Source: Gammaproteobacteria bacterium | GTDB taxonomy: Bacteria; Pseudomonadota; Gammaproteobacteria; SG8-11 | Assembly: GCA_031421535.1 (NCBI GenBank) | Contig: JANOOV010000391.1 | Coordinates: forward strand, 1 to 61,122 | Length of the DNA: 61,122 nt | Direction: 5' to 3' | Shown: piece after piece, positions 27,392 through 34,530 of the stretch | Numbering within the stretch: position 1 is the first letter of the stretch | Layout of the letters: each line of letters opens with the position of its first letter | The notes under the pieces: generated by a model | Databases searched by the model: none | The model's input: only the letters and a program-made list of their open reading frames with translations | Told to the model about the DNA's origin: nothing | Made by a program: the position numbers and the translations under genes

Positions 27392-29287
27392 ATGAACCTG
27401 ACCACGGATTACCCAATAAACGTAGCCAACGAAACGTTGCTCAGCATGCCTGCGCAAACGAAATCCAGCTTGAGTTATAGCGTGGTTTCGATGGTTGGAG
27501 GCCTGTTGTTAGTTGCCGATATCCTCTGCCTTCTGCTTGCCGCCTCCCTCAGCACTCTTTTCTACACCCAGTGGCTGGCGCCGCTGAACTTCGCCGCTGC
27601 CGGTTTCGGGAATGGCTTCGAGCAAGCGGCATGGGTCGCCGCCGTGTTGGCGCCCTTCATTCTTTACGACCGGCGCTTCGGCGCGGTGGCCAGCCGCAGC
27701 CAGATGTCGCTGCTGGTTCGTTCTTATGCGCTGCGCTTTACGATATTTTCCGGCGTGATTCTGGTGTTGGGCGGAATCAGTCAAGCACTGGAAAACTTTC
27801 CGGGCGCTTGGCTGGCGATGTGGTTTGCAACCGGCCTGTTGTTGACCTCACTCACGCGGGTGCTGGCCGCGCAGGCGGTGCGGCGTTTGCAGCATCACGG
27901 CGTATTGACCGAAGTGATCGCCGTAGTCGGCGCGGGTCCGGTGGCGGATCGCCTGGTGCAGACGCTGCGTCAAACGCGGGCCGACACCATCGAACTGCTG
28001 GGCGTCTTTGACGACCCAATCGAGGGTGCAGCGCAGGGCATGATTAAACCGGTGGGCAGCCTCGAACAACTCCTTGAGTTGGGCAAGACCCGCAAGATTG
28101 ATTGGATTCTGCTGACGCTGCCGCCCACGGCGGAGCAGGAAATACTCGCAACGGTGCAACGCCTCAAGGCCTTGGCGGTGCCCATCGGTCTGTGCCCCCA
28201 GCACATGGAATTAGCGCTGCCGTCGCGCAACATCGATTACGTCGCTGGCAGCGTGCCGGTGACTTTGTTGGCAGATCGCCCGAGCAAGCCTTGGGATGCC
28301 TTGGTTAAAGCGGCGGAAGATTTTCTGCCCCGCTGGATCATCACCTTGGCACTGTTGCCCTTGGCAGTGCTTGAAGTGCTCACTGCCAGATTCGTAAAGT
28401 CTGCCGCCCGCATTTCGCAACCCCGCGCCGCAAAATTAACCTTCCAGTTTGATAATTATGATCTCGCCAGATTCACGCAGGTGGCCGCCAATTTCGGCCA
28501 GCACCGCTACGGCTATGTGGTGACGCCGAACGCCGATCACATGATCCGCTTGCATGAGCACGCGTCGTTTCGTGCGCTTTACGCCACAGCCAATTACATC
28601 CTCCTCGACAGCCGCTTTCTGTCGAAGATTTTGCACTTCACCAAAGGGATGCAACTGCCGGTGTGCACCGGCAGTGATCTGACCGCAAAACTCTTTGCCG
28701 AAGTGATCGCGCCCGACGACGCACTGGTGCTGATCGGCGGCACGGCTGAGCAGGCCCGCCAACTGGGCGCGCGTTATGGTGTGCGGCGCTTGGCGCACTA
28801 TAACCCCCCGATGGGATTCATCCATGACCCGGAAGCGGTTGAAACCTGCTTGCGTTTCATCGAGTCGCACAGCCCGTTTCGTTTCTGCCTGCTGGCGGTG
28901 GGCTCGCCGCAGCAAGAAATCATCGCACAACACCTGAAGGCACGCGGTATTGCTCTGGGCTTGACATTATGCATCGGCGCATCGATCAACTTCCTCACCG
29001 GCGACGAACGCCGCGCGCCGTTGTGGATGCAGAATGCAGGGCTGGAGTGGTGTTACCGCTTGATGCAAGCCCCCGCACGCATGGCCAAGCGCTACCTGGT
29101 GCGCGGGCCGCGCGTGTTCGGATTGCTGCGTAATGCGCAGATTGTGCTGCGCAAGGACTCGACGCCGATCCTGCGGCTGGTGCCGACGCTCAATCAACCC
29201 GCGCTGCCCGTGGCTCAAGAATCCGCACGCATTGTTGAGAGCAAGAATCAACAAGTTTTAAGTGGTGGTGTGAAGGGCCGTTTTTAG
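27392..29287 (+). CDS. Chimeric protein: N-terminal membrane/Rossmann module of a phosphoglycosyl transferase fused to a WecG/TagA/CpsF (GT26) glycosyltransferase domain
   Basis: Residues about 35-330 align closely with 20718..2199's paralog 20718..22199, up to KAAEDFL plus one TM helix. The C-terminus carries GT26 hallmarks (VVTPNADHMIRL, GSDLTAKLF, LIGGTAEQA, AVGSPQQEI, RAPLWMQNAGLEWCYRL). Confidence 0.85.
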   Translation: MNLTTDYPINVANETLLSMPAQTKSSLSYSVVSMVGGLLLVADILCLLLAASLSTLFYTQWLAPLNFAAAGFGNGFEQAAWVAAVLAPFILYDRRFGAVASRSQMSLLVRSYALRFTIFSGVILVLGGISQALENFPGAWLAMWFATGLLLTSLTRVLAAQAVRRLQHHGVLTEVIAVVGAGPVADRLVQTLRQTRADTIELLGVFDDPIEGAAQGMIKPVGSLEQLLELGKTRKIDWILLTLPPTAEQEILATVQRLKALAVPIGLCPQHMELALPSRNIDYVAGSVPVTLLADRPSKPWDALVKAAEDFLPRWIITLALLPLAVLEVLTARFVKSAARISQPRAAKLTFQFDNYDLARFTQVAANFGQHRYGYVVTPNADHMIRLHEHASFRALYATANYILLDSRFLSKILHFTKGMQLPVCTGSDLTAKLFAEVIAPDDALVLIGGTAEQARQLGARYGVRRLAHYNPPMGFIHDPEAVETCLRFIESHSPFRFCLLAVGSPQQEIIAQHLKARGIALGLTLCIGASINFLTGDERRAPLWMQNAGLEWCYRLMQAPARMAKRYLVRGPRVFGLLRNAQIVLRKDSTPILRLVPTLNQPALPVAQESARIVESKNQQVLSGGVKGRF

Positions 29288-29334
29288 ACCTTATGTAAAT
29301 ACCACCTTGGGTTCACATGTTAGAGGGCAGAAAA

Positions 29335-29523
29335 ATGCATAGTGCCAAGCGCGATATGGAAGAGCTTCTGAAAAATATCCCGGACGGCGGGTCGTATGAG
29401 GACATTCAGTATCAAATTTATGTCCGGCAGAAGACTGAGCAAGGAGACGCGGACGCCGAAGCGGGCCGCATGTTGACACAAGAAGAAACGGAAAAGCGGA
29501 TGGAAAGGTGGCTAAGAGGCTGA
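29335..29523 (+). CDS. Small antitoxin-like protein (type usually paired with RelE/ParE toxins), apparently orphaned
   Basis: MHSAKRDMEELLKNIPDGGSYEDIQYQIYVRQKTEQGDADAEAGRMLTQEETEKRMERWL. A GAGGG sits before the ATG at 29335. An alternative ATG lies at 29317. Confidence 0.4.
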   Translation: MHSAKRDMEELLKNIPDGGSYEDIQYQIYVRQKTEQGDADAEAGRMLTQEETEKRMERWLRG

Positions 29524-29559
29524 TCTGGAAGCTGTCGCCGACTACCTTCTCGCGTTCTT

Positions 29560-29710
29560 CGGCTTGCACAAATTCGGCATCGGGCCACGCCTCTGCCAAG
29601 GCAAGCATGTATTTGAGATTGCGTGGAGAAAAACCCTTCATGTGAGGGAAATCCGTGCGCAGGTCATGTGCCAGCCGCTCGATGACCTTTGTTTCCCAAC
29701 CTTCCTGAGA
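29560..29710 (-). pseudogene. Fragment of a YhcG/DUF1016-type (PDDEXK nuclease family) gene
   Basis: The minus strand reads QEGWETKVIERLAHDLRTDFPHMKGFSPRNLKYMLALAEAWPDAEFVQ. It is bounded by a stop upstream and by unrelated sequence downstream, so only about 50 codons of a protein that is normally much longer remain. Confidence 0.55.
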
Positions 29711-29802
29711 TCACGGCACCGTTATTAATTGCGATTGTTGACGACGCGTCGTTTCCCGGTACCGATATGTAGCGCTATTTGCTGTTGTGTTTAAGCCTTA
29801 CG

Positions 29803-32305
29803 CTACGTTCGAGCTGTGATGACAACCGGCGTTTTTATCTTCTCGGCGACCGCGTTGTAAATGTCAAGGCCTGTTTCCGGTGTACGGATGGAAACGATCA
29901 AGCTGTAGTGGGCGGGTAAATTGTAACGTTCCAGTTTGGGGCGAGTGCGCCACCAACCCATCGCAGGATAGACAGCAAGAAAACCTCGGCTGGCTAGGTC
30001 AGCGGCAGTGCCCTCCCACACATCCTGATGCAGCGAACCCCTGTGTCGCTGCCGTCCGCCGAGTAACCAATCCGGGTCCTTGGGATTGGTATGTTCACCA
30101 TCTTCTTCCATGGCCGCAGCTGCATTGATGCGAGCAAGAAATTCTTTTTCCGAATCATGTTGATGGCGCACATCAAATCGCAGCCGGTGTGAGGGGTAAT
30201 GGTACTTCGATGCGGTGCCTCGGGCAGATGGGTTGGGTTCGATGAAATAGGAAAGCGTCACCCGCATATTTACTTTGGTCTCGCCAAGAGACTCCAGTTG
30301 ATCTTTCGGCCAGGGCAGCGTGTGCAGATTCATGTCGCGGGTTTTGATTTTCCCCTTTGCCTTTTGATACGGGTGAACCAAGTCCTCGACGATCAACGTC
30401 AGCGAATTAGCCGCGCTCCATCGTGCACGTTCCAGGTCAGGGACGCCCCAGCCGCAGTGGCGGATCAGATAGGCGTAGTCATTTTTGGTAGGCAGCTTGT
30501 CCGCTGGCAAATATGTCTGCCGCATGGCGTCTGTCCAATCGGCGGAATGGGCGATGAGGGCACGGATGGTTTCAGGCCGTAGTTGCGGGTAAGCAGCCAT
30601 GAGTTGCGCGGCCATGCGTGCGCACAGCGCGGATGCTGCGCTGGTGGCATTGGTGGTAGTGAAGAGTTTTTCGGTCGGCTTGAAGTACGTCGTCAATAAG
30701 TCGAGACTTGGCATCCCTACCGCACCGAGCGCATCTTTCGCTACATTCCCGCCTTCGAATACCACATCAGGCTTTAGCGGCCATGCCTTGTCCCAAGTTG
30801 CCGAGGTTGTGGTAAACTGACTGGGCCCGCCAAACGGTGCCACAGGCTCCACGCTGGGAATTTCAGTTTCAACTTTTTCCGTGAATGCACCCACCGTCAG
30901 CGCGTTCCAAGCTTGACCGGGATCGTGAATCAGATTGGTTGAGAGGCTGTTAGGGTAAGTGATCCAGGCAGCGTGCTCTCTGGTATTCCCAGAGGATAGG
31001 ACCATGAGCCGTGGAAATTTTCCGCTTCCATCCGCATCCGCCGCCAACCGGTCCACTGTGGACGACCACGAGGAAGGGCGACCGCGATCACGGTAATCCG
31101 AGGCCGTCACCGCCGAACTAAATAGTCGGGGACGCTGTGGTGCAGCGATTTCGGGCCGACTTACCGCTTCGGCAAATAGGTTCGCGTGAAATTCGCCATT
31201 CCCCGCATTTTCTCCCTCTTTCCGAGTGAGTTTGACCGATTCAAGAAGATGATCAATCCGGATAGGTTGATCGGTGCTGAGGGCATCGGTTAAGTCGCCG
31301 TAGATGGCGATGCCTGCCAAACCGGTGCCGTGATTGCATTCGTCATCAGCACCCCAGGCCGGTTCCACCGTGTGCAGATCATTGCTCGTCATTACGGGGG
31401 CGAGCAATGGATGGCCCCCGGTTCACGCCAGTATCGAGAAGACAAACGCGTGGCACATTGTCAGTGTGTGCGGGGAACGTTGTTCGGGCCAGCAGCTCAT
31501 CCTTCCAAACGATCTGTTCCTCGGCATTCATGCCGTCAAACAACTCAGCCGTTTCTTTCGCGCGGCGAAGTTCCGCCACACAATTCAGTGTCAATACTGA
31601 TTGGGAGAACTGGTGTTCCGAGCCATACATCAGTACGACCGTCCGTTCGGGAAAATCCACACGAGCTGCGCTAACCGAACAACCGACTGCGGCGGCCAGT
31701 TTGCGAAAATCTGCGACCACCTGTTCACCTGCGCCACGAACAGTCAGCCAGACCTCCCACCAAAACTTTTCATTGGGGTCACTCGGCAGTTCAATCTCGT
31801 CTTGCCATAGACCGCGAATGGCTTGTGTACGGATTGAAGAGAGGGTATTCAGCAGCGCTTTATGGTCGATAGGTTTGCCATTCTTGTTTTTCTTCTCCGC
31901 AAGGTACTCGGCAATGTATTTTTCAAAATGCGCGAGTTTGCCATCGGGCACGAATACGTTGGCGTAGGTGAACTCACCTTCCTTGCGGATGCTCAGCAGT
32001 TCAATGTGCTGCGGCTCGTTGGCGAGACTTTCAAATGCCAATTCGACATCAGGCTGGCTGCGGAATTGAATTTGAAGCCCGATTCCGCTTTCGAGGCCCA
32101 TTTCATGCTGCTTGGCTGCGGCATCTTCAGCAATTGGCTTGAGTGCTTGGAGCTGGGTTTGGAGGAATGCGCCGTGTTGGGCGCGAGAAAGCTCTGGGAC
32201 TTCTTTCGAATCCCCACCGCCAGCGGAGTGGGCGGTGAAAGGTTTAGCTACTGAAGTTTCGGAAAGGACAATATGCGGGCGATTATCGGGCACTTGATTC
32301 GTCAT
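29803..32305 (-). pseudogene. ietS: IetS-like S8 (subtilisin) family serine protease, interrupted by a 1-nt frameshift
   Basis: ORF 31379..32305 ends ...VCLLDTGVNRG (catalytic Asp). ORF 29803..31407 continues in another frame as HPLLAPV...HGTGLAGIA (His) and ...TSAASA... (Ser region). Removing one base from the C5 run at 31415-31419 restores DTGVNRGHPLL. Confidence 0.75.
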
Positions 32306-33320
32306 CGCTTGGCGATTGGTTATTGTTGTTGCTGGCCAATTTTCCGCTGATCAATTTGCGTTCTTCCAGCATGCGCACGAGGTCGGCTTCTACCACAGAG
32401 TTGCAGTCGCGGATGATGCTGTCCTTGATCGCCTCGTCGGCGGCTCTCGAAATCTCTGCGTAACTTAACCCAAACGCATGCCCAGCAATCTTGCGCCAAG
32501 AAAAACGCTTGCTTTGAAATCCAGCGAGCCGCGCTTTGAGCATCGAAATGATTTGCTCCTGATTGGGCAGGCCGTACTGAATCATGTCGTCAAAACGGCG
32601 GAAGAGCGCGTAGTCGAGGACATCAGGATGGTTGGTTGCGGCGATGATCACGCTGTGTGATTGATCCTGCTCGATCATTTGCAGAAAACTATTGAGCACC
32701 CGCCGTATCTCGCCAACATCGTTGGCAAGACTTCGTTGCGAACCGATCGCATCGAATTCATCAAAAAAATAGATGCCACGCACGTCGGCAATAGCATCGA
32801 AAATCTGTCGCAATTTAGCCGCAGTTTCCCCCATATATTTTGTAATCAACACATCGAGTCGAACAAGGAATAGCGGAATTCCTAATTCTGCCGCAAGGGC
32901 TGCGGCCGTCATTGTCTTACCTGTTCCTGGAGGGCCAACAAGAAGCAACTTACGTCGTGGCGATAAGCCATGTTCTTTCAACTTGGCGAAAAATCGCTGT
33001 TCCTTGATGGTTCGCTTGAGTTTCTGCAATACGCAGTCGTCGAGAATCATGTCGGACAGGCGAGTGCTTGGATACGACACGCTGAGGAGTCCTACCAATT
33101 CGCCGCGTGGTTTGTTGAGCGGGACCAACTTGCCAGCACTGCCTGCAGCTTGTCCTCGGGACTTTGCAGCATCAATCATGTCGCGAAGTTCTTCGGCTAA
33201 TTTCCCATGACCTAGTTTGGCTTCATGGGCGGCAACCTGCATAGCAATGGACAAAAAACGTCCCTCATCACCCTCGATGTGTGACTTGAGAAGTGCTTTT
33301 AGTTGCTCGGCGCTTGCCAT
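32283..33320 (-). CDS. ietA: IetA-like AAA+ ATPase
   Basis: Classic AAA domain: Walker A GPPGTGKT, Walker B IYFFDEFD, and the second region of homology (ATNHPDVLDYALFRRF). The ATG at 33320 is preceded by GGAG. The 3' end overlaps the protease start by 23 nt. Confidence 0.8.
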   Translation of the reverse strand: MASAEQLKALLKSHIEGDEGRFLSIAMQVAAHEAKLGHGKLAEELRDMIDAAKSRGQAAGSAGKLVPLNKPRGELVGLLSVSYPSTRLSDMILDDCVLQKLKRTIKEQRFFAKLKEHGLSPRRKLLLVGPPGTGKTMTAAALAAELGIPLFLVRLDVLITKYMGETAAKLRQIFDAIADVRGIYFFDEFDAIGSQRSLANDVGEIRRVLNSFLQMIEQDQSHSVIIAATNHPDVLDYALFRRFDDMIQYGLPNQEQIISMLKARLAGFQSKRFSWRKIAGHAFGLSYAEISRAADEAIKDSIIRDCNSVVEADLVRMLEERKLISGKLASNNNNQSPSDDESSAR

Positions 33321-33417
33321 GTTTTTCTCCAAACCATTTTTACTTTTTGGAGTATACGGATTCTTGGGGAAATGTAAGCAGGTGCTATGCAGCTCAGTGC
33401 CCTGCTGTCGCGCCCGC

Positions 33418-34530
33418 TCATTTCATCCATTTAGGTTGCAAGCGGCCCTGTTCGTCGAAGCGGTACTGGCCGTCGAGCCAGCCTTTGCCAAATAAAATCA
33501 GCACCTGATCGTAGTAGTGTGTCGGCCCGCTGCGTTTGGTGCGCAGCCGGTCGCGCTGCTTGTTCAACGCCGGGGCGTCGCCGAGCGCGCTGAGGAACGG
33601 CAACACCGCCGCTGAATATCCAATGGGCGAGTAATCGGATTTAATCGCCGCTGCGGTCTGCGGATTCACTTTCTCGGGCGGCGCACCGTGCTGGTTAATC
33701 AGCGCCGCATAAGGGGCGAGCAGCTTGATTTTTTTTGCGCTGCTCTGCCCGGACATTCCCGCCCACAGATAAACGCGGATGGCGTCGTAGCTGCCGGAGG
33801 GTTCCGTCTCGGTATCTGGCATGACCAGACCCTTGGCATCGACGACGAATAAATCCGGGGCGATGCCGCTACGGTATATTTCCGGCGCCATACGCATGTA
33901 GCTGTCCCATACCGACTGCCATGGTCCTTGCGGGTCAGCCGCCGCCAGGTAACGAAACATGAACTCGGGTAAATAGCTGGGGTTGATGCGGAAACGCCCT
34001 TTATCGAGCGCGAAGCCAATTGCGCCGGGCAGCAGTACCGTACCGGCGCTCCCGGCCTGGGCAATCTCATGTCGTTGAATCTGTGCCAGCAGCTTGCGGC
34101 CGGTGTCGGCGTACTCCGGCGCTTTCCACAAACGTGCGGCTTCCAACAAGCTGTAAGCAATCCACAGATCCGCATCGGAAGCGGAGTTCTCATCCTTCAC
34201 TCCCCAACTGCCATCGTCGCGTTGCCCCCACAACCAGGCCGGAAGTTTGTTGCCGAGTTGTCCGGCAGCGAGATGGTCAGAGGTCCACTTGAGAATAGCG
34301 TCGAACCGGGGGCGCTGATTCGCGACCAACGCAAAGAACAATGCGTAGGATTGCCCTTCCGACGTGCTCTTGCGTTCAAAGGTCACGTCAACTACGCGGC
34401 CGTCGGCCTGTACAAAATGGCCGACAAAATCGTCCCACTCCGGCCAGTCAGACAAGGGCTTGGGAGACGCACAGGCACTGGGCATCGCAAACAGAAAAAT
34501 TACCGGCAACACAATGGTCTTGATGTGCAT
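33418..34530 (-). CDS. bcsZ: Glycoside hydrolase family 8 endoglucanase (BcsZ-like)
   Basis: Signal peptide and GH8 hallmarks (TSEGQSYALFFALV, ASDADLWIAYSLLEA, SYLP). Confidence 0.8.
   Translation of the reverse strand: MHIKTIVLPVIFLFAMPSACASPKPLSDWPEWDDFVGHFVQADGRVVDVTFERKSTSEGQSYALFFALVANQRPRFDAILKWTSDHLAAGQLGNKLPAWLWGQRDDGSWGVKDENSASDADLWIAYSLLEAARLWKAPEYADTGRKLLAQIQRHEIAQAGSAGTVLLPGAIGFALDKGRFRINPSYLPEFMFRYLAAADPQGPWQSVWDSYMRMAPEIYRSGIAPDLFVVDAKGLVMPDTETEPSGSYDAIRVYLWAGMSGQSSAKKIKLLAPYAALINQHGAPPEKVNPQTAAAIKSDYSPIGYSAAVLPFLSALGDAPALNKQRDRLRTKRSGPTHYYDQVLILFGKGWLDGQYRFDEQGRLQPKWMK

Follow-up and report, generated by a model that had tools for sequence, protein, structure and literature searches.

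The 61,122-nucleotide (nt) contig JANOOV010000391.1 of the gammaproteobacterial assembly GCA_031421535.1 carries, between two polysaccharide genes, a gene for an AAA+ ATPase followed by a gene for an S8 family protease (subtilase), and the question raised by this locus is whether the pair represents an IetAS system and whether it can still act as one. IetAS is an anti-phage system that was reportedly described in 2020 by Gao and colleagues. Throughout this text, the window is the whole stretch that was analyzed, that is, the entire contig (C391) of a metagenome-assembled genome of 3.49 Mb in 570 contigs, with 87% completeness and 6% contamination. Judging by homology, the pair belongs to the broad IetAS family and, within it, to the clade typified by plasmid pTiC58; its ATPase gene (ietA) is intact, and its protease gene (ietS) is split by a frameshift. 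We consider it likely that the window contains an islet with a compact, self-promoted pTiC58-type ietA-ietS cassette, the toxin gene of which was recently inactivated, and that this cassette no longer works as a module for defence or addiction.

The ATPase-protease pair and its assignment to IetAS

Read from a TTG codon, the open reading frame (ORF) of ietA spans positions 32283-33332 and encodes 349 amino acids; the likely start is the ATG at 33320, which is preceded by GGAG and gives a protein of 345 amino acids, a length that matches the calls in relatives. The protein contains the Walker A motif GPPGTGKT (residues 129-136), the Walker B motif FFDEFD (residues 185-190, given as FDEFD in the original prediction) and ATNHPDVLDYALFRRF (ATNH...FRRFD), all three named in the original prediction, as well as the aromatic-hydrophobic-glycine pore loop 1, KYMGE, at residues 161-165. 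It matches the PADLOC profile PDLC02196 for IetA with an E-value of 4.4e-76 (residues 7-329 on profile positions 3-325 of 374) and the Pfam AAA family with 3.9e-31. A phmmer search of the PDB identified p97, Cdc48, NSF and AFG2 as the closest proteins (1e-49 to 1e-44), and the AAA module is also near PAN and FtsH. In an exact-sequence look-up, the protein was found in no contig besides its own record. On the minus strand, ietA lies upstream and overlaps the next ORF, which starts at 32305, by the predicted 23 nt exactly. The gene order and the overlap are common to the loci L015, L016 and L017, and an adjacent, co-oriented arrangement is also present in L020.

The second gene had been described as an S8 protease of roughly 835 codons with a long unassigned N-terminal region. 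As written, it consists of two ORFs of 308 and 534 amino acids, the latter at 29803-31407; removal of one base from the tract at 31414-31420 yields a continuous open frame of 833 codons, uninterrupted by any further stop, which reads DTGVNRGHPLL, so that the expected length holds for the read-through. The 534-residue fragment matches Peptidase_S8 in Pfam (1.7e-43) and the PADLOC IetS profile (4e-23), and the read-through matches the latter with 2.5e-33 (residues 71-786 on profile positions 56-746 of 795). The long N-terminal region is present and corresponds to Pfam PF27160 (Y4kK_N), as assigned via precomputed matches on homologues; thus, this part is no longer unassigned. The 308-residue fragment itself produced zero matches in scans of the Pfam and NCBIfam libraries and, in an exact-sequence look-up, was found in no contig besides its own record. 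A sequence search for solved structures of the protease returned nothing at E <= 0.001. In an AlphaFold model of an intact IetS relative (predicted local distance difference test score, pLDDT, 74), the best fold matches are the pro-subtilases Tk-SP, PCSK9 and furin. Modeled alone (pLDDT 61.5), the N-terminal domain has weak matches to tandem ferredoxin-like or ACT-like folds (E about 1e-3, template modeling score 0.2-0.3), which are not strong enough to be relied on and only weakly suggest two ferredoxin-like, propeptide-like or ACT-like modules ahead of the catalytic domain.

On the pTiC58 record, an AAA gene is followed by one of the S8 type; the names ietA and ietS are not used there, and we take this pair to be the founding IetA/IetS toxin-antitoxin because it is the only matching AAA/S8 pair on that record. 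In the passages of PMC13069673, PMC8562856 and PMC5006074 that cite it, the founding member of IetAS is the pTiC58 pair of Yamamoto et al. (2009). The window IetA is 55% identical to the pTiC58 ATPase over the full length (E 4e-125). P0001, an intact relative that is 92% identical to the window IetS, shares 38.7% identity with the pTiC58 protease over 99% of the length, including the Y4kK_N region, and the 308-residue fragment of the window is collinear, from its first residue, with residues 1-302 of the pTiC58 S8 peptidase (E 6e-26). The two-gene order is the same as well. The pTiC58 genes differ from those of the window in being separated by a gap of 3 nt rather than overlapping by 23 nt, and the window copy differs in being chromosomal, in a Sulfurifustaceae genome, and in having a frameshifted ietS.

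The NCBIfam equivalogs IteA_antiphage and IteS_antiphage (NF042959 and NF042956) have cut-offs of 510 and 900 bits, respectively, and the window IetA scored 210.8 bits and the intact relative P0001 65.5 bits. Given that these scores are far below the cut-offs, the pair is assigned to the pTiC58-type clade rather than to the one from which those models were built. The same shortfall, along with the labels that NCBI attaches to the homologues, which are only 'S8 family peptidase' and 'ATP-binding protein', would also be expected if a generic AAA+ ATPase were accompanied by a secreted or housekeeping subtilase with no role in defence or as a toxin-antitoxin. This interpretation appears most improbable in view of the full-length, collinear homology to the pTiC58 pair, at an identity similar to that reported for the experimentally validated SgiAT (50% and 36% to the pTiC58 IetA and IetS, respectively; PMC5006074), the sporadic and mobile distribution in defence-island and plasmid contexts (see below), and an N-terminus (MTNQVPDNRPHIVLSETS...) in which no signal peptide was seen by eye. 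The identification proposed in the original prediction, for which a PADLOC run had been suggested, is thus upheld both by the PADLOC matches to IetA and to the read-through IetS and by the homology to pTiC58.

The allele is, however, less rare than had been assumed, and it adds little. The read-through has 7231 significant matches, among them thousands of intact homologues of about 830 amino acids that are 70-92% identical (best, 92%). The best 120 of these 7231 matches carry PF27160 together with PF00082, and many of them, at 70-80% identity, come from Gallionellaceae, Sterolibacteriaceae, Methylococcales and Herbaspirillum.

The frameshift in ietS

The frameshift mentioned in the original prediction was located within the tract at 31414-31420 (Table 1). 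At this site, L015 and L031 read CGGGGGC, L016 reads CGTGGCC and the window reads CGGGGGCC; because all three relatives are shorter at the site, the window carries one extra base. The upstream ORF stops 11 codons past LLDTGVNRG. The Asp, His and Ser residues of the catalytic triad are all present and conserved in the read-through, but they are not joined in one polypeptide: Asp291 is encoded in the upstream ORF, and His325 and Ser555 are in the downstream one. Given this separation, no active protease would be made from the window copy.

Several observations favour a real lesion, which we consider likely. The most telling evidence comes from a sister allele in three Logan contigs, L031, L032 and L033 (runs SRR33270636, SRR33230143 and SRR33270639, respectively), in which ietS is spread over three frames; these genes are intact at the position of the frameshift in the window and are broken further on, at sites that differ from that of the window. 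In all three, ietA is intact and identical to the window ietA at 340 of the 345 positions. Because of these separate lesions and a ratio of nonsynonymous to synonymous substitution rates (dN/dS) of only 0.05 for ietA in the comparison with L015, ietS appears to decay independently within the clade while ietA is kept. Furthermore, none of the remaining long ORFs of the contig, the largest of which has 1193 amino acids, is interrupted.

Other observations weigh against this conclusion. Among about 400 conserved columns, the window ietS deviates at 7, a number equal to the median of the family, and its dN/dS in the comparison with L015 is 0.165 in the part upstream of the shift and 0.176 in the part downstream of it, with no sign of relaxation; an assembly or consensus error would look identical to this pattern of conservation. 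Given that ietS otherwise appears fully constrained, the lesion is either very recent or an artefact. Under the latter explanation, the extra base would be an error of assembly or consensus, or a variant of a minority strain, and the organism would possess an intact, functional IetAS, serving as an abortive-infection defence, as an island-stabilizing toxin-antitoxin, or as both. The long open read-through with its family-typical conservation, the nearly equal dN/dS on the two sides of the shift, the location of the extra base in a G5C2 tract and the fragmented, partly contaminated nature of the metagenome-assembled genome are all compatible with such an origin. However, the unbroken ORFs elsewhere in the contig imply a low rate of indel errors, the same run of five G residues is found in intact relatives, so a simple miscount of that homopolymer is not the cause, and independent decay of ietS is documented in the sister allele. 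We therefore regard an artefact as unlikely, though as the strongest competitor of a genuine, recent inactivation of the toxin gene.

Programmed +1 ribosomal frameshifting at CGG-GGG-CCA, by which the synthesis of a toxic protease would be limited, was also considered. The shift lies within a G-rich tract, a perfect 9-bp stem (CATTGCTCG / CGAGCAATG) follows it directly, and a low dosage of the toxin is plausible for a toxin-antitoxin pair; nevertheless, all of the best 120 of the 7231 homologues are called as single proteins of about 760-850 amino acids, no recognized +1 slippery or stall motif is present in our assessment, the closest DNA relatives, L015 and L031, have the same stem without the extra base, and L016 has no stem. 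Such a mechanism is very unlikely and was rejected on account of the relatives that lack the extra base. The stem is the perfect core of an imperfect inverted repeat (31367-31422) that spans the frameshift site; the core is found in L015 but not in L016, and by this comparison the repeat is probably incidental.

The islet and its distribution

The nearest named matches of the flanking GH8 gene are from Sulfuricaulis sp. (80%) and a Sulfurifustaceae bacterium (76%), and by these matches the host genome can be described as Sulfuricaulis-like (Sulfurifustaceae). In this genome, the segment between the WecG-type and GH8 genes is, by sequence criteria, a horizontally acquired islet, as the empty site in related genomes, the low overall GC content and GC content at third codon positions (GC3), and the 93% identity of the cassette to an otherwise unrelated contig jointly indicate. 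The contig as a whole has a GC content of 57.7% and the genome one of 57.3%, whereas that of the segment is 53.4%; this is the lowest value of any 4.13-kb window on the contig and falls in the 6th percentile genome-wide. GC3 is 0.54-0.59 in the genes of the insert and 0.63-0.72 in the adjoining genes. A window-type ietA was detected in none of 40 relatives, five of them congeners. In two of these congeners (G002 and G004), the genes orthologous to the WecG-type gene (72% and 70% identity) and to the GH8 gene (77% and 70%) lie immediately next to each other in convergent orientation, and L023 has the same arrangement by ORF position. Accordingly, the AT-richness that had been noticed by eye, the position between two polysaccharide genes, the gene debris on one side and the horizontal insertion proposed in the original prediction all withstood computation of the GC content, comparison of synteny and Pfam scanning.

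Table 1. Positions of the islet, its genes and other elements, and the flanking genes in the window
Feature	Coordinates	Strand	Evidence or remarks
ietA, classical-clade AAA+ ATPase (antitoxin), 345 amino acids, intact	32283..33320	-	PADLOC, Pfam, pTiC58 homology, motifs
ietS, 5' part, 308 amino acids: Y4kK_N-type N-terminal domain and catalytic Asp291 (LLDTG, 31433-31435)	31379..32305	-	Out-of-frame tail, premature stop
ietS, 3' part: remaining S8 catalytic domain (His325, Asn440, Ser555) and C-terminal domain	29803..31413	-	+1 frame relative to 5' part
Frameshift site, with one base too many in CGGGGGCC (coding strand)	31414..31420	-	GGGGGCC tract (G5C2); six codons after catalytic Asp
Candidate sigma-70-like promoter CTTACA-16-TATACT, upstream of ietA	33351..33378	-	Consensus match only; inside stretch conserved in L015
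Conserved ietAS cassette with promoter region, both genes and a 3' tail of about 58 nt	29745..33389	-	Identity to L015 and L031
Whole inserted segment	29288..33417	.	Between stops of WecG-type and GH8 genes; 4130 bp
68-amino-acid ORF, left edge of insert	29317..29523	+	ORF list
DUF1016/YhcG-type gene fragment, N-terminal domain only	29530..29710 (about)	-	Pfam DUF1016_N, 1.1e-10, profile positions 41-87 of 137; left-edge debris
WecG-type glycosyltransferase gene (Glyco_tran_WecG)	27392-29287	+	Left flank, polysaccharide gene
GH8 gene (Glyco_hydro_8)	33418-34530	-	Right flank; Acyl_transf_3 beyond

Within the insert, the conserved cassette (Table 1) is 93.3% identical to the Logan contig L015 at the DNA level over 3649 nt, and the flanks of L015 are unrelated to those of the window; the identity to L031 is 92.7%. 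Given this similarity and the differing flanks, the mobile unit would be the 3.65-kb cassette including the promoter-like site. The synonymous divergence (dS) from L015 differs twofold between the two genes (0.10 for ietA and 0.23 for ietS), which suggests recombination within the cassette or separate histories of the genes.

The gap between the convergent flanking genes (29287/33418) is a variable spot in Sulfurifustaceae-like genomes (also in L013 and L014) that can be empty or occupied by a PLD-domain gene, by MipA and BON genes, or by IetAS. Specifically, L022 has the MipA and BON genes at this position, and L024 and L029 each have an ORF of 560-580 amino acids; that of L029 is the PLD-domain gene, and that of L024, which was not scanned for domains, is similar in size only.

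At the left edge of the insert, the 68-amino-acid ORF, which looks antitoxin-like by eye, had zero matches in Pfam and NCBIfam scans. Both this ORF and the DUF1016_N fragment are located beyond the stretch common to L015, and they may be what is left of an island that was older or larger. The ORF list of the window includes no gene for an integrase, transposase or other recombinase in the insert, and a repeat search of positions 29150-33520 yielded only short imperfect matches; neither a target-site duplication nor terminal inverted repeats could be convincingly recognized around the insert.

Elsewhere, the homologues adjoin type I restriction-modification genes, BREX-like or DISARM-like genes with MobI, or HigBA. 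Of 401 genomes sampled evenly across the class, only 10 have this IetS clade. A tblastn search of plasmids with the closest intact relative as the query retrieved 494 records, of which 342 are conjugative and 213 are from Klebsiella, with pTiC58 among them. A homologue with about 59% identity is present on more than 200 Klebsiella plasmid records, mostly conjugative, where it is annotated under the generic names quoted above. In one record, CP110579.1, the match to the homologue is in two pieces, and an IS5-family transposase is annotated under the match.

The same genome contains a second IetAS locus on contig C61 (L002: 1-2421, minus strand), with PADLOC matches of 6.6e-101 for IetA and 3.6e-160 for IetS, the latter cut by the contig end. 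This locus is more canonical. Its IetS match is stronger than that of the read-through IetS of the window (2.5e-33). Its IetA is only 34% identical to the window IetA. It could be part of the 6% contamination.

A model of the locus and its meaning for the family

IetS is a cytoplasmic subtilisin-like protease toxin, the toxicity of which can be released by a phage protein, resulting in abortive infection. IetS-type proteases are toxic and are neutralized by the cognate ATPase in pTiC58, in SgiAT of Salmonella Genomic Island 1 (SGI1) and in the Mycoplasma TA132/133 pair (PMC8562856, PMC5006074). In the Escherichia coli ietHAS system, ietA mutants cannot be cloned, and the protease activity is needed for defence (PMC13069673); the IetAS of Bacillus cereus m1293 acts through abortive infection triggered by the SPbeta protein YosG (10.1101/2022.08.27.505566). 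In April 2026, the way in which IetAS counters phage was described as unknown (PMC13069673), and our literature search turned up no mechanistic paper on IetAS.

The window pair can be compared with three groups of these systems. SgiAT (S026-S025; PMC5006074) likewise combines an AAA-ATPase antitoxin with a subtilase toxin and stabilizes the integrated island; the window pair, likened to it via pTiC58, is at a comparable distance from the pTiC58 proteins, but SgiAT is intact and functional, unlike the window allele. The IetAS anti-phage systems (Gao et al., 2020; B. cereus m1293, 10.1101/2022.08.27.505566; ECOR52, 10.1101/2022.08.21.504612; ietHAS, PMC13069673) belong to the same PADLOC families and have the same order of ATPase and protease; in these, the active site of the protease is required, and abortive infection is triggered by a phage protein. 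The window pair differs from them in its clade, as defined by the IteA/IteS cut-offs, in having no helicase partner and in its broken protease gene. TA132/133 (PMC8562856), a distant relative likened to the window pair by description, is a chromosomal pair of an ATPase antitoxin and an S8 toxin, with signs of horizontal transfer and an antitoxin that cannot be deleted alone.

A mechanism can be proposed for the intact state. IetA, a classical-clade AAA+ protein with a pore loop like those of p97, PAN and FtsH, would restrain IetS by ATP-driven engagement or remodelling, and this restraint would most likely be active rather than passive binding. A role for IetA as a substrate-engaging unfoldase is consistent with its aromatic pore loop and with the proximity of its AAA module to p97/Cdc48, NSF, AFG2, PAN and FtsH. 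The handle for IetA is likely to be the propeptide-like Y4kK_N region at the N-terminus of IetS. A phage trigger would interrupt the restraint, and the freed IetS would then cleave cellular targets. In the window copy, the extra base would place His325 and Ser555 out of frame, leaving an intact antitoxin gene beside a toxin gene that was inactivated very recently. That the toxin gene is lost first fits the published roles of the two proteins. Against this account, it has to be considered that the unfoldase role of IetA and the propeptide-like role of the N-terminal domain are ones that we infer, and that the literature searched includes no member of this exact subclade that was tested against phage.

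The repeated decay of the toxin gene, with different lesions in the window and in L031-L033, together with the strong purifying selection on ietA, raises another possibility, namely, that selection favours an orphan IetA in its own right, for instance in an anti-addiction or immunity role in which it neutralizes IetS from incoming plasmids or islands. We regard this as doubtful.

By itself, the allele adds little: it is 92% identical to database proteins and is an ordinary, probably defunct member of a very large catalogued family. Only one aspect is mildly new, namely, that the toxin gene is lost recurrently while the antitoxin gene is retained, and the locus provides natural evidence that ietS is lost ahead of ietA. 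The locus is also a clean example of a self-contained 3.65-kb cassette that, in the absence of a recombinase, occupies a variable site between genes of an exopolysaccharide locus. For the family, the PF27160 N-terminal domain, which is common to the pTiC58-type clade, is the obvious target for learning how the ATPase restrains the protease.

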